From: a virus
Lineage: Duplodnaviria > Heunggongvirae > Uroviricota > Caudoviricetes
Strand: one strand, 5' to 3'
IMG/VR virus record: IMGVR_UViG_2541047758_000005
Coordinates: 1 to 12,059 of that record
DNA length: 12,059 nt
Positions 4,017 through 5,278 of this stretch are shown here, piece after piece. The notes beneath the pieces are model-generated. The model worked only from the letters and a program-made list of their open reading frames with translations. It was not told the origin of the DNA and did no database searches. How positions within the stretch are numbered: the first letter of the stretch is position 1; each line of letters begins with the position of its first letter. A program made the translations under genes and the position numbers.

Positions 4017-4211
4017 ATGTCAACGAAGAACAGAACCCGCAGAACAACAACCCGCAACATCCGCTTTCCTAACCAAATGATTGAACAAATTAACATCGCT
4101 CTTGATCAAAAAGGGTCCGGGAATTTCTCAGCCTGGGTCATTGAAGCCTGCCGTCGGAGGCTAACGTCAGAAAAGAGAGCATATACATCAATTAAAAGTG
4201 ATGAAGAATGA
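4017..4211 (+). CDS. ylcI: Small ribbon-helix-helix (Arc/MetJ/CopG-like) protein, cos-proximal (YlcI-like, 64 aa)
   Basis: 64-aa ORF; N-terminal basic tail, then RNIRFP (beta-strand) and two helices NQMIEQINIALDQKG / NFSAWVIEACRRRL, typical of RHH DNA binders; weak GGGG RBS; size matches K-12 YlcI by recall. Confidence 0.55.
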   Translation: MSTKNRTRRTTTRNIRFPNQMIEQINIALDQKGSGNFSAWVIEACRRRLTSEKRAYTSIKSDEE

Positions 4212-4304
4212 ACATCCCGCGTTCTTCCCTCCGAACAGGACGATATTGTAAATTCACTTAATTACGAGGGCATTGCAGTAATTGAGTTGCAGTTTTACCA
4301 CTTT

Positions 4305-4342
4305 CCTGACAGTGACAGACTGCGTGTTGGCTCTGTCACAGG
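4305..4342. terminator. Hairpin between convergent ylcI-like and ybcW-like genes (stem gtgacaga/tctgtcac, 12-nt loop), no clear U-tract
   Basis: Inverted repeat 4312-4319 / 4332-4339 with flanking cct/agg pairing; located between two convergent stop codons. Confidence 0.3.
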
Positions 4343-4375
4343 TTAAGTAGTTTGAATGATTAGCAGTTATGGTGA

Positions 4376-4582
4376 TCAGTCAACCACCAGGGAATAATCC
4401 TTCATATTATTATCGTGCTTCACCAACGCTGCCTCAATTGCCCTGAATGCTTCCAGAGACACCTTATGTTCTATACATGCAATTACAACATCAGGGTAAC
4501 TCATAGAAATGGTGCTATTAAGCATATTTTTTACACGAATCAGATCCACGGAGGGATCATCAGCAGATTGTTCTTTATTCAT
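4376..4582 (-). CDS. ybcW: Small acidic hypothetical protein (YbcW-like, 68 aa)
   Basis: 68-aa [71 protein letters not shown]; ATG with GGAG RBS 8 nt upstream; size and position match the small ORF near the lambda/DLP12 right end by recall. Confidence 0.5.
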
Positions 4583-4867
4583 TTTGTCGCTCCATGCGCT
4601 TGCTCTTCATCTAGCGGTTAAAATATTACTTCAAATCTTTCTGTATGAAGATTTGAGCACGTTGGCCTTACATACATCTGTCGGTTGTATTTCCCTCCAG
4701 AATGCCAGCAGGACCGCACTTTGTTACACAACCAATACTATTAATTGAAAACATTCCTAATATTTGACATAAATCATCAACAAAACACAAAGAGGTCAGA
4801 CCAGATTGAAACGATAAAAACGATAATGCAAACTACGCGCCCTCGTATCACATGGAAGGTTTTACCA

Positions 4868-5278
4868 ATGGCTCAGGTTGCCATTTTTAAAGAAATATTC
4901 GATCAAGTGCGAAAAGATTTAAACTGTGAATTGTTTTATTCTGAACTAAAACGTCACAATGTCTCACATTATATTTACTATCTAGCCACAGATAATATTC
5001 ACATTGTGTTAGAAAACGATAACACTGTGTTAATAAAAGGACTTAAAAAGGTTGTAAATGTTAAATTCTCAAGAAATACGCATCTTATAGAAACGTCCTT
5101 TGATAGGTTGAAATCAAGAGAAATCACATTTCAGCAATACAGGGAAAATCTTGCTAAAGCAGGAGTTTTCCGATGGGTTACAAATATCCACGAACATAAA
5201 AGATATTACTATACCTTTGATAATTCATTACTATTTACTGAGAGCATTCAGAACACTACACAAATCTTTCCACGCTAA
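4868..5278 (+). CDS. ybcV: DUF1398-family hypothetical protein (YbcV-like, 136 aa)
   Basis: Track ORF 4745..5278 (177 aa); preferred start is ATG at 4868 ([38 protein letters not shown]...), preceded by GGAAGG, giving 136 aa as recalled for K-12 YbcV. Confidence 0.7.

Follow-up and report, generated by a model that had tools for sequence, protein, structure and literature searches.

The closest described counterparts of the locus analysed here are found in phage lambda and in the DLP12 prophage of Escherichia coli K-12. Lambda carries the genes for p78 and p79 together with an unannotated homologue of ylcI, and K-12 carries the corresponding genes as ybcV, ybcW and ylcI; gene content, order, orientation and spacing are in both cases the same as in the window, by which we mean the whole 12,059-nucleotide stretch of DNA that was analysed. 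Lambda is an active phage, whereas the window is part of a prophage of the DLP12 type, decayed as the first-pass annotation of this DNA had recognized, with its portal gene truncated to a 119-aa remnant; otherwise nothing of substance differs. The Qin prophage holds a paralogous pair, ynfO and ydfO (homologues of ylcI and of the DUF1398 gene ybcV), separated by a 57-bp gap and found at the equivalent location, flanked by nohA/cos and by the lysis cassette. Qin shares with the window the conserved leader of the DUF1398 gene with its PdhR-type box, and YdfO is approximately 80% identical to the YbcV of the window. In contrast, Qin lacks both ybcW and the inverted repeat described below, has gnsB rather than bor as the next gene, and encodes a YnfO with a different and longer C-terminal tail (77 aa). 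Comparison of these and related loci makes it likely that ylcI, ybcW and ybcV are three separate, individually exchangeable add-on genes in a right end of the lambda/DLP12 type, rather than one system.

The features of the window on which this comparison depends are as follows.

3806-3817, minus strand: cosN cohesive-end 12-mer, GGGCGGCGACCT (an exact and single match, with 0.01 expected by chance).
4017-4211, plus strand: ylcI, 64 aa, pI 10.5, with a GGGG Shine-Dalgarno-like motif before 4017.
4305-4342, strandless: inverted repeat or hairpin lying between the stop codons of the convergent genes ylcI and ybcW, with core arms GTGACAGA (4312-4319) and TCTGTCAC (4332-4339).
4376-4582, minus strand: ybcW, 68 aa, pI 4.9, with GGAG before the minus-strand ATG at 4582.
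4790-4867, plus strand: conserved 5' leader of the DUF1398 gene, with a PdhR-box-like palindrome, TGGTCTGACC, at 4794-4803 (the single exact match in the window) and a GGAAGG Shine-Dalgarno motif.
4868-5278, plus strand: ybcV, 136 aa from its ATG, with GGAAGG before 4868.
5335-5370, plus strand: terminator-like hairpin and T-run 3' of ybcV, a candidate from a consensus scan only.
5569-5862, plus strand: open reading frame of bor, the serum-resistance lipoprotein gene, named Bor in lambda and RefSeq.

The cosN site marks the ends of the lambda genome and serves as an anchor for the map. The first-pass annotation had described three small intact open reading frames between cos and bor, in alternating orientation (plus, minus, plus) and each with its own ribosome-binding site, and the map agrees with it, including Shine-Dalgarno-like motifs 7-8 nt ahead of all three starts. 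Two other candidate reading frames were rejected: an 85-aa frame at 3744-4001 spans cosN, and an upstream TTG at 4745, which would extend ybcV to 177 aa, is a less likely start than the ATG at 4868 because RefSeq uses 4868 and the conservation shared with the Qin variant reaches back no further than about 75 nt before that ATG. The segment is 98.4% identical in DNA to the right end of phage lambda and matches 294 phage records. Its proteins are 98.5% (YbcV, p78), 100% (YbcW, p79; 47738-47941 in J02459 and NC_001416) and 98.4% (YlcI) identical to those of lambda, and RefSeq gives the names ylcI (YlcI/YnfO, DUF3950), ybcW and ybcV to the genes of a locus that is 100% identical over the query. 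These identities mark the segment as the accessory region at the right end of a genome of the lambda/DLP12 type, and its genes are already catalogued. Some match to the segment occurs in 4087 of 5426 complete E. coli genomes (about three quarters), and at least 80% of it is carried by 1330 of the 5426. Among the collected homologues, hundreds of copies riddled with errors, on contigs of approximately 3.5 kb, predominated; these hold no natural diversity and are probably the lambda control amplicon from nanopore sequencing. Likewise, a scan of genome contigs for DUF1398 returned mostly lambda contamination in unrelated taxa, so that the Escherichia and Shigella loci alone were usable.

All three genes evolve as coding genes, as judged from matches to curated families (DUF3950, 5e-20; NF041551, 3e-9; DUF1398, 1.7e-46; PHROGs 949, 657 and 413) and from purifying selection between natural variants (dN/dS of 0.06 for ylcI, approximately 0.4 for ybcW and approximately 0.2 for the DUF1398 gene ybcV), which together place the reading frames beyond chance and uphold the earlier claim that they are conserved. 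YlcI scores 71.4 bits against Pfam PF13132 (DUF3950; cut-off 25) and 36.6 bits against NCBIfam NF041551 (cut-off 30), and on these profile scores belongs to the YlcI/YnfO family. It is, by the substitution ratios, the most strongly constrained of the three: residues 1-50 form a conserved core followed by a variable C-terminal tail, and codons 1-50 compared with a homologue from Stx phages give a dS of 0.90 and a dN of 0.054. YbcV matches PF07166 across the whole profile (157.6 bits against a cut-off of 22, positions 1-119 of 119) and, over residues 1-136, PDB entry 2HH8, the structure of its paralogue YdfO (E = 3.2e-71); it is thus assigned to DUF1398 with a predicted YdfO-like fold. YbcW matches PHROG 657 over its full length (7.5e-48, positions 1-68 of 68) and had no match in Pfam or PDB searches. 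Its family of 199 cluster representatives consists mostly of fragments and close variants, with at least 55% identity among the best 150 of the 199, and on this sampling is narrow and confined to lambdoids. AlphaFold2 (AF2) predicts three helices for YbcW at medium confidence; fold matches of this model to Rip1 and to small terminase are noise (E above 6, TM below 0.3).

The first-pass annotation called YlcI a clear ribbon-helix-helix (RHH) DNA binder, a description that is plausible in its substance and too strong in its adjective. YlcI resembles the P22 repressors Arc and Mnt in its phage origin, its basic character and its small size (about 60 aa), its residues 14-33 can be aligned gap-free with Arc 11-30 and Mnt 9-28, and all three proteins share an N-x-R-x-P motif at the junction of the strand with helix 1 and a Gly before helix 2. 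The AF2 monomer (pLDDT 66) has residues 1-18 extended, followed by helices at 19-32 and 34-63, and its top PDB match in Foldseek is a chain of the Arc-operator complex (1par_C), at a non-significant E of 5 and a TM of 0.38-0.45. The alignments of YlcI and YbcW were shallow, hence the medium confidence of both models (pLDDT 63-66). Smith-Waterman alignment with Arc gives a z-score of 3.1 (1.1% of shuffled sequences reach the same score; p ~0.01), and hhalign against Arc and Mnt recovers the correct register at a probability below significance (P = 0.088). However, BLASTP against Arc gave no match, a Pfam HMM search at E-values up to 10 returned no RHH family, a PDB profile search returned no RHH match, and a fold search of BFVD gave no informative match, so the similarity to Arc and Mnt lies below significance in BLASTP, HMMER, hhalign and Foldseek alike. 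The consistent register and the Arc fold match nevertheless indicate that YlcI probably adopts an Arc-like RHH fold. Unlike arc and mnt, which lie in the immunity region, ylcI adjoins the packaging genes.

The orientation of the surrounding genes separates ybcW from its neighbours. Because S, R, Rz, Nu1 and A all lie on the minus strand, a late transcript would cross all three genes, as the first-pass annotation had stated; ybcW alone is read in its sense direction, and ylcI, ybcV and bor are antisense to it. GC content is 31-44% across 3750-5550, compared with 54-55% in the terminase and Rz genes, and is lowest in ybcV (approximately 32%). ylcI, ybcV and bor are AT-rich, moron-like genes: bor is a known lysogen-expressed moron, and ylcI and ybcV share with the bor/lom type its strand, its antisense relation to the late transcript, its low GC content and a presence/absence polymorphism flanked by conserved genes. 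As for bor and lom, there is also evidence from this region of transcription in the prophage state under host regulators. The likeness does not extend to the products, as those of ylcI, ybcW and ybcV carry no signal peptide or lipobox in their sequences and are presumably cytoplasmic, unlike the lipoprotein Bor, nor to ybcW, which is not in the moron orientation. A simple scan found no consensus sigma-70 promoter upstream of ylcI or ybcV, and such a scan is uninformative here (7 sites against 6.2 expected). At least 50% of K-12 RNA-seq sets have been reported to show an overlap of the convergent ybcW and ylcI transcripts.

Published work on K-12 and lambda bears on ybcV. A PdhR site found by SELEX lies between ybcV and ybcW, and both mRNAs are approximately 10-fold lower in a K-12 pdhR deletion strain; expression of ybcW and ybcV also responds to Hha and MotB/H-NS, and the paralogue ydfO is stress-inducible. 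The lambda, EH031 and Qin variants all have the DUF1398 leader in conserved form. Targeting of p78 by CRISPRi gave an efficiency of plating of 1.9 and a score of non-essential, as was also the case for bor. ybcV can be pictured as a DUF1398 moron, rich in AT and preceded by a conserved leader that bears a PdhR-type box. It would be expressed from the prophage under host control (as shown for K-12), is dispensable for lytic growth and most likely serves as a lysogenic-conversion or stress-related factor. The 'head' or 'envelope' label attached to p78 and PHROG 413 appears to be an inherited annotation; it was rejected in view of the antisense orientation of the gene to the late operon, its non-essential CRISPRi score and its absence from many intact lambdoid phages. 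Marginal hits to PADLOC-DB 2.0 among five DUF1398 variants (REase_II in two, E 2e-4 to 4e-4; Csx23 in three, E 0.01-0.03) were likewise set aside, as the REase_II match vanishes in the 80%-identical YdfO. ylcI had no match in this database and none of the three proteins had a robust one.

ybcW is the exception to this picture. p79 has been reported to activate the Vulcan NADase defence during infection by lambda-vir, co-expression of p79 and Vulcan is toxic, and phages escaping Vulcan had deleted p79 in seven of seven cases, by recombination with Qin. As it triggers Vulcan during lambda-vir infection, ybcW is a lytic-phase product. p79 is non-essential by genetics, and an 'essential' CRISPRi score has been put down to polarity on the late transcript. 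ybcW has the same sense as the Q-dependent late transcript, is made in lytic growth and is dispensable for plaques, and its product, according to this literature, is what switches on the Vulcan abortive-infection system. The system resembles the Avs and Rip1 types, whose triggers are terminase and portal: p79 is likewise a late phage protein whose presence alone activates an effector, and Rip1-type sensors also monitor late products of the packaging region. However, the structural triggers of Avs and Rip1 differ from p79, which is not essential and which escapers simply delete. The proposal that these genes serve lysogen functions rather than morphogenesis accordingly holds in part. Their accessory character is supported by low GC content, by the dispensability of p78, p79 and bor and by transcription of ybcV and ybcW in the K-12 cryptic prophage, but ybcW is a lytic gene in the sense of the late operon.

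The three genes assort independently among related phages. In the 80 closest IMG/VR loci, the full set ylcI-ybcW-ybcV-bor is the commonest arrangement (46), followed by ylcI separated from bor by 364 bp (20) and ylcI-ybcW-gnsB (9). The phage collection has 155 records with ylcI, 43 with DUF1398 and 40 with ybcW. In the EH031 prophage, ybcW and DUF1398 stand without ylcI, beside a different terminase; PhiR63_1 and mEp460 have ybcW without DUF1398, with ylcI also found in PhiR63_1; and in the Stx phage WGPS8, DUF3950 is the only one of the three and adjoins HNH-TerS-TerL. All pairings of the genes, and each gene by itself, thus exist in intact phages, which argues against a functional trio, and the 'conserved trio' of the first-pass annotation dissolves, as a unit, into genes that come and go independently. 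ybcW and ybcV lie on a cassette of approximately 1 kb, which some loci have and others lack in the interval from ylcI to bor or gnsB.

The same comparison bears on the inverted repeat, which had been put forward, at 4296-4345, as a site of autoregulation by the RHH protein. The repeat exists, and in five variants its arms are invariant and its loop variable. Its folding energy is not unusual (z of -0.3 on the plus strand and -1.7 on the minus strand), a terminator scan did not flag it, and neither the hairpin nor the intergenic regions match an Rfam family. It is present in every fetched locus with ybcW, even where ylcI is lacking, and missing from loci with ylcI that lack ybcW; by this co-segregation it is part of the ybcW module. 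Given that it lies 3' of ylcI and segregates with ybcW, it is not an obligate YlcI operator, and a role in YlcI autoregulation is unlikely.

Some functional interplay of the three genes is conceivable, as the full trio is the commonest arrangement in the closest relatives (46 of 80). The first-pass annotation went further and saw one lysogen-expressed unit with immunity, exclusion or regulatory functions, in which the RHH protein would be the regulator, possibly acting via the inverted repeat. We consider such a unit very improbable. The predominance of the full trio among the closest loci, the carriage of most of the segment by so many E. coli genomes and the PdhR-bound divergent control region shared by ybcV and ybcW all speak for it; however, intact phages contain all of the smaller combinations, ybcW belongs to the late operon and is expressed during lytic growth, the repeat follows ybcW and is missing where ylcI stands without it, and PADLOC offers no robust match for any of the proteins. 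Only marginally better placed, and still improbable, is a toxin-antitoxin-like or regulator-effector pair of ylcI and DUF1398, comparable to ynfO-ydfO of Qin, into which ybcW was later inserted. Qin-type loci, in which both genes point the same way with 57 bp between them, are indeed common (2528 E. coli records at 80-90% identity), a basic RHH-like protein lies upstream of a larger protein, and one decayed locus (L042) has lost both genes together. Yet at least 112 phage records (155 vs 43) and 29 of the 80 IMG/VR loci have ylcI but lack DUF1398, and EH031 has DUF1398 but lacks ylcI. The leader conserved before DUF1398 carries a host-factor box of its own, no signature of toxicity is seen in Vulcan escapers or by CRISPRi, and neither DUF1398 nor YbcW matches a toxin family of Pfam, NCBIfam or PADLOC. 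In the window, 656 bp separate ylcI from ybcV, with ybcW on the opposite strand between them, and the two genes are adjacent only in the Qin variant. With genes that are not adjacent, a co-occurrence that is not obligate and no toxin family match, a type II toxin-antitoxin reading is unlikely, and the suggestion that YlcI is an antitoxin fails the co-occurrence test of ylcI and DUF1398.

Two further alternatives concern single genes. Phages with diverged downstream genes are still 98% identical over the 388 bp from Nu1 to ylcI, comparisons within lambda-type phages yield few ylcI substitutions, and the lambda RefSeq record appears not to annotate the gene (it is missing from a CRISPRi table that uses the lambdap locus tags), all of which would suit conservation of cis-acting cos-proximal DNA (cosQ, packaging signals), or hitch-hiking with Nu1-cos, in place of a functional protein. 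This is hardly credible when set against the homologue in Stx phages, which adjoins an unrelated HNH/TerS/TerL module, has no homology in its upstream DNA and retains the protein at the low dN and high dS given above. The ylcI frame is moreover intact in all 80 of the closest IMG/VR loci, curated NCBIfam and Pfam models exist, and the YlcI/YnfO family is also reported from Enterobacter capsid-forming PICIs. A more serious possibility, although one we hold to be well short of even, is that p79 is a counter-defence or host-takeover protein, a small acidic inhibitor against which Vulcan evolved as a guard-type sensor; p79 may, as a guess, bind and inhibit a host or defence protein. p79 is small, acidic and helical, non-essential, expressed late and a direct activator of a defence system, and its variable N-terminal 22 residues and almost invariant C-terminal 46 are compatible with an arms race. 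On the other side, it has no homology or fold match to known anti-defence proteins, many defence triggers are ordinary phage proteins with no anti-defence role, and ybcW is also expressed in K-12 from the cryptic prophage under PdhR and Hha control.

These genes are present in the most-studied phage genome and in some three quarters of complete E. coli genomes, yet their biochemical function is a long-recognised gap rather than a discovery, and they are better studied singly than as a system. The p79-triggered NADase defence gives the region current relevance for work on phage defence. ylcI is absent from the reference lambda annotation despite being under the strongest constraint of the three; 'mutations' in ylcI listed in K-12 resequencing papers were set aside, as they may be mapping artefacts between the paralogues ylcI and ynfO. 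The product of ylcI is a small basic protein with a 50-residue core under strong purifying selection, most likely forming an Arc/Mnt-like RHH dimer that binds DNA, and encoded, it appears, always at the boundary before the packaging genes, directed away from them and against the late transcript. This direction suggests a promoter of its own, like that of bor, a suggestion based on orientation and K-12 RNA-seq reports. A speculative extension, to which we give little credence, is that YlcI is an Arc-like DNA-binding protein kept specifically at the entry of the packaging module, irrespective of terminase type (Nu1/A of lambda, HNH-TerS-TerL of Stx phages, capsid-forming PICIs). It would be transcribed from the prophage against the late operon and would act in trans on lambdoid elements that are co-resident or superinfecting, affecting either their cos region or the expression of their late or packaging genes. 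If this were true, YlcI would be a small factor of interference or regulation between prophages, or between prophages and satellites, of a kind so far undescribed in lambda.

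The window carries a lambdoid prophage in which the order of the lambda map is reversed. Portal gene B is reduced to a 119-aa N-terminal remnant (624–983) with unrelated sequence beyond it (1–620), and the annotation of a closely related locus lists portal, tail and tail-fibre genes as remnants; the prophage is thus a decayed element of the type of DLP12, the K-12 prophage that carries ylcI, ybcW and ybcV. The three small ORFs that the first-pass annotation had described between cos and bor, each with a ribosome-binding site, are present and preceded by Shine-Dalgarno-like motifs, within the following layout (terminase and portal positions from the ORF map).

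Features of the window around cos and bor
Before terminase A in window coordinates, minus strand: portal remnant and W
1183–3108, minus strand: terminase A
3083–3628, minus strand: Nu1
3806–3817: cosN 12-mer
4017–4211, plus strand: ylcI (ORF64), 64 aa, pI 10.5
4376–4582, minus strand: ybcW (ORF68), 68 aa, pI 4.9
4868–5278, plus strand: ybcV, DUF1398, 136 aa, pI 9.2
5569–5862, plus strand: bor
Beyond bor, minus strand: Rz, R and S
Beyond Rz-R-S: porin gene, Q-type antiterminator and ompT-like gene

An intact 365-aa nmpC/OmpC-like porin gene (7653–8750, lying after the lysis genes and before the Q antiterminator) and a 317-aa OmpT-type omptin gene (10135–11088, just past Q) are further outer-membrane morons of the same element. 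A long inverted repeat (3653–3709; 26-nt arms, 85% complementary, 5-nt gap) sits immediately upstream of Nu1, on the side of cosN that carries the terminase genes; it gives spurious microRNA-like Rfam matches and, from its position, presumably belongs to cosB, where terminase binds. An 85-aa plus-strand ORF at 3744–4001 is probably spurious, given that it spans cosN, would be split in virion DNA and has no Pfam match; small ORFs around these positions are annotated in some lambda records.

All three genes belong to known, named families at a known lambda locus, and the finding rediscovers the ORFs of the lambda right end. Positions 3650–5570 share 98.4% identity with the lambda right end, and 294 phage records match them; in lambda-type records the ORFs appear as hypothetical proteins, as YbcW, and as YbcV or ‘putative envelope protein’, and RefSeq E. 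coli annotations name them ylcI (YlcI/YnfO family), ybcW and ybcV (DUF1398). The segment is matched in 4087 of 5426 complete E. coli genomes in RefSeq, at least 80% of it in 1330. Family searches assign ORF64 to DUF3950 (5e-20) and NCBIfam NF041551, and the 136-aa protein to DUF1398 (1.7e-46); the three proteins match PHROGs 949, 657 and 413. ORF68 is identical to lambda p79 (100%) and the 136-aa protein nearly so to lambda p78 (98.5%), the latter also matching E. coli YdfO (PDB 2HH8) over its full length (E=3e-71). Of the lambda annotations consulted, namely a gene table that uses the lambdap locus tags and record KT232076, the table lacks the ylcI homologue; lambda ‘orf-64’ is another gene, located between Q and S.

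That ylcI, ybcW and ybcV are real genes is borne out by coding constraint. Selection was assessed by comparing natural variants alone, since sequencing-control noise accounts for most ‘homologues’ in the databases. Codons 1–50 of ylcI compared with the Stx-phage homologue give a dS of 0.90 and a dN of 0.054 (ratio 0.06), dN/dS is approximately 0.2 for DUF1398 and approximately 0.4 for ybcW, where substitutions are concentrated in residues 1–22 and leave the last 46 almost unchanged. All 80 closest IMG/VR loci carry an intact ylcI. The genes do decay when not maintained: in a second lambdoid remnant of E. coli ECGI0523 (L042, 3700–4400), the pair ynfO-ydfO is pseudogenised beside a degraded Nu1, each gene of the pair being interrupted by stops and frameshifts. 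Public protein and genome collections contain error-ridden copies of the lambda segment by the hundred, on contigs of approximately 3.5 kb (e.g. comparison loci L007–L041), and whole lambda genomes lie within assemblies of unrelated taxa, among them Pseudomonas, Kitasatospora, Brevibacillus, Veillonella, Staphylococcus, a plant and a ‘Campylobacter phage’. These copies are most likely sequencing-control lambda DNA, a contamination that inflates the apparent host range and diversity of these families.

The proposal that the genes form one conserved trio is not upheld, as they assort independently among related loci.

Arrangements of ylcI, ybcW and DUF1398 genes in related loci
Type a, ylcI-ybcW-ybcV-bor: lambda, DLP12 and the window
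Type b, ynfO, 57 bp, ydfO, then gnsB, without ybcW: the K-12 prophage Qin
Type c, ybcW-DUF1398-gnsB without ylcI, beside a different terminase (DUF1441 small subunit): strain EH031
Type d, ybcW-gnsB without DUF1398: PhiR63_1 and mEp460 (an unannotated ylcI was also detected in PhiR63_1)
Type e, DUF3950 alone beside HNH-TerS-TerL: Stx2 phage WGPS8
Type f, ylcI, 364 bp without an ORF of at least 40 aa, then bor

Phage-collection records number 155 for ylcI, 43 for DUF1398 and 40 for ybcW, and among the 80 closest IMG/VR loci, 46 contain all three genes, 20 are of type f and nine of type d. These counts indicate that ybcW and ybcV lie on a cassette of approximately 1 kb, with ylcI on one side and bor or gnsB on the other. 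YlcI/YnfO proteins are 64, 75 or 77 aa long owing to their C-terminal tails: residues 1–50 are nearly invariant, and the last 10–25 share no relationship across the lambda, Qin and Stx types (window 4166–4211; L003, L045 and L036). This variability is explained if the left junction of the cassette falls within the 3′ end of ylcI, which appears to be a recurrent recombination junction. Judged from gene content, the presence/absence pattern is that of morons, not of an obligate multi-gene system; nor does it resemble that of a toxin-antitoxin pair.

The inverted repeat at 4296–4345, put forward as a site of YlcI autoregulation, is not an obligate operator. Its core arms, GTGACAGA (4312–4319) and TCTGTCAC (4332–4339), are invariant in five variants that differ in loop sequence and length; its predicted stability is unremarkable, and a terminator scan detected no canonical terminator there on either strand. 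The repeat occurs in every locus compared that has ybcW, including EH031, which lacks ylcI, and is missing where Qin-type and Stx-type loci carry ylcI without ybcW. This distribution assigns it to the ybcW module, whose 3′ flank it forms on the late transcript; relative to ylcI, it lies downstream rather than at the promoter.

Because the minus strand encodes S, R, Rz, Nu1 and A alike, the Q-dependent late transcript crosses the region from right to left; only ybcW (p79) is sense to it, with ylcI, ybcV and bor antisense. GC content is 31–44% over the region versus 54–55% in flanking phage genes. In a lambda dCas12a study, p78 and bor were non-essential, and a roadblock in p79 abolished plating despite the gene being non-essential, which the authors attribute to polarity on the late transcript. 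Lambda-vir escapers of Vulcan, an NADase abortive-infection defence, had all lost p79 through recombination with Qin, itself lacking ybcW, and co-expression of p79 and Vulcan was toxic; together these data indicate that p79 is a dispensable product of lytic growth. A PdhR binding site separates ybcV from ybcW in K-12, where a pdhR deletion lowers the mRNA of each approximately 10-fold. The published PdhR box corresponds to the palindrome TGGTCTGACC at 4794–4803, within a leader of approximately 75 nt upstream of the DUF1398 ATG that is conserved in lambda, EH031 and Qin variants. Perturbations of Hha and H-NS/MotB also alter ybcW and ybcV expression, and convergent, overlapping ybcW/ylcI transcripts are reported from most K-12 RNA-seq sets. 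The DUF1398 paralogue ydfO is strongly stress-inducible, and another study, cited in the report of that induction, found that YdfO overexpression raised oxidative-stress resistance.

YbcW is predicted with low confidence to be a three-helix protein, and structure and family searches returned no match. Searched exhaustively with HMMER, 1.84 billion cluster representatives gave only 199 matches, mostly fragments or close variants, with at least 55% identity among the 150 listed; so few and such close matches indicate a family confined to lambdoid phages. p79 is a late, dispensable small acidic protein, shown in the literature to trigger Vulcan, and might, speculatively, inhibit a host or defence factor. 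For DUF1398, a solved structure exists for a paralogue. PHROG 413 and a number of records call p78 a ‘head protein’ or ‘envelope protein’, labels that lack evident support and conflict with its antisense orientation, non-essentiality and patchy distribution. PADLOC yielded no robust defence-family match; for the DUF1398 protein of the window and its variants (L004, L033 and L036 among them), weak but recurring matches, all below threshold, were to Csx23 (E 0.01–0.03; three of five variants) and to a type II restriction enzyme model (E 2e-4 to 4e-4; two of five). Csx23 is a cyclic-nucleotide-binding protein associated with type III CRISPR. Most likely, p78 is a host-regulated moron, with expression from the prophage shown in K-12 and plaque formation shown not to require it, and it probably contributes to lysogen fitness or to coping with stress.

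ORF64 had been called a clear ribbon-helix-helix (RHH) protein; the fold is plausible, but ‘clear’ is too strong. The AF2 model of YlcI (pLDDT 66) has an extended basic N-terminus and helices at 19–32 and 34–63, and the Arc repressor-operator complex is the PDB structure that it matches best, at E=5; a viral structure library gave nothing informative. Smith-Waterman alignment to Arc and Mnt, phage P22 repressors whose sequences were checked against PDB 1arq and 1mnt, places YlcI 14–33 on Arc 11–30 and Mnt 9–28 in the same register, with N-x-R-x-P and a Gly before helix 2 in common (z of 3.1 for Arc, with 1.1% of shuffles as good, and 1.5 for Mnt). hhalign recovers the same YlcI register (P=0.088), and no RHH similarity emerged from BLASTP, from Pfam up to E=10 or from a profile search of the PDB. 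On balance, YlcI likely has an RHH fold, and would bind DNA as an Arc-like dimer; orientation and K-12 transcripts suggest that a promoter of its own would express it, in the direction opposite to the late transcript. In WGPS8 (L045), the YlcI/YnfO-family gene lies directly beside, and divergent from, the HNH endonuclease-TerS-TerL packaging module, and the family is among the accessory genes of Enterobacter capsid-forming PICIs, which have their own TerS and TerL. ylcI is thus conserved at the entry to packaging modules even where the phages’ terminases are unrelated, and the YlcI/YnfO family may track packaging-module boundaries in general.
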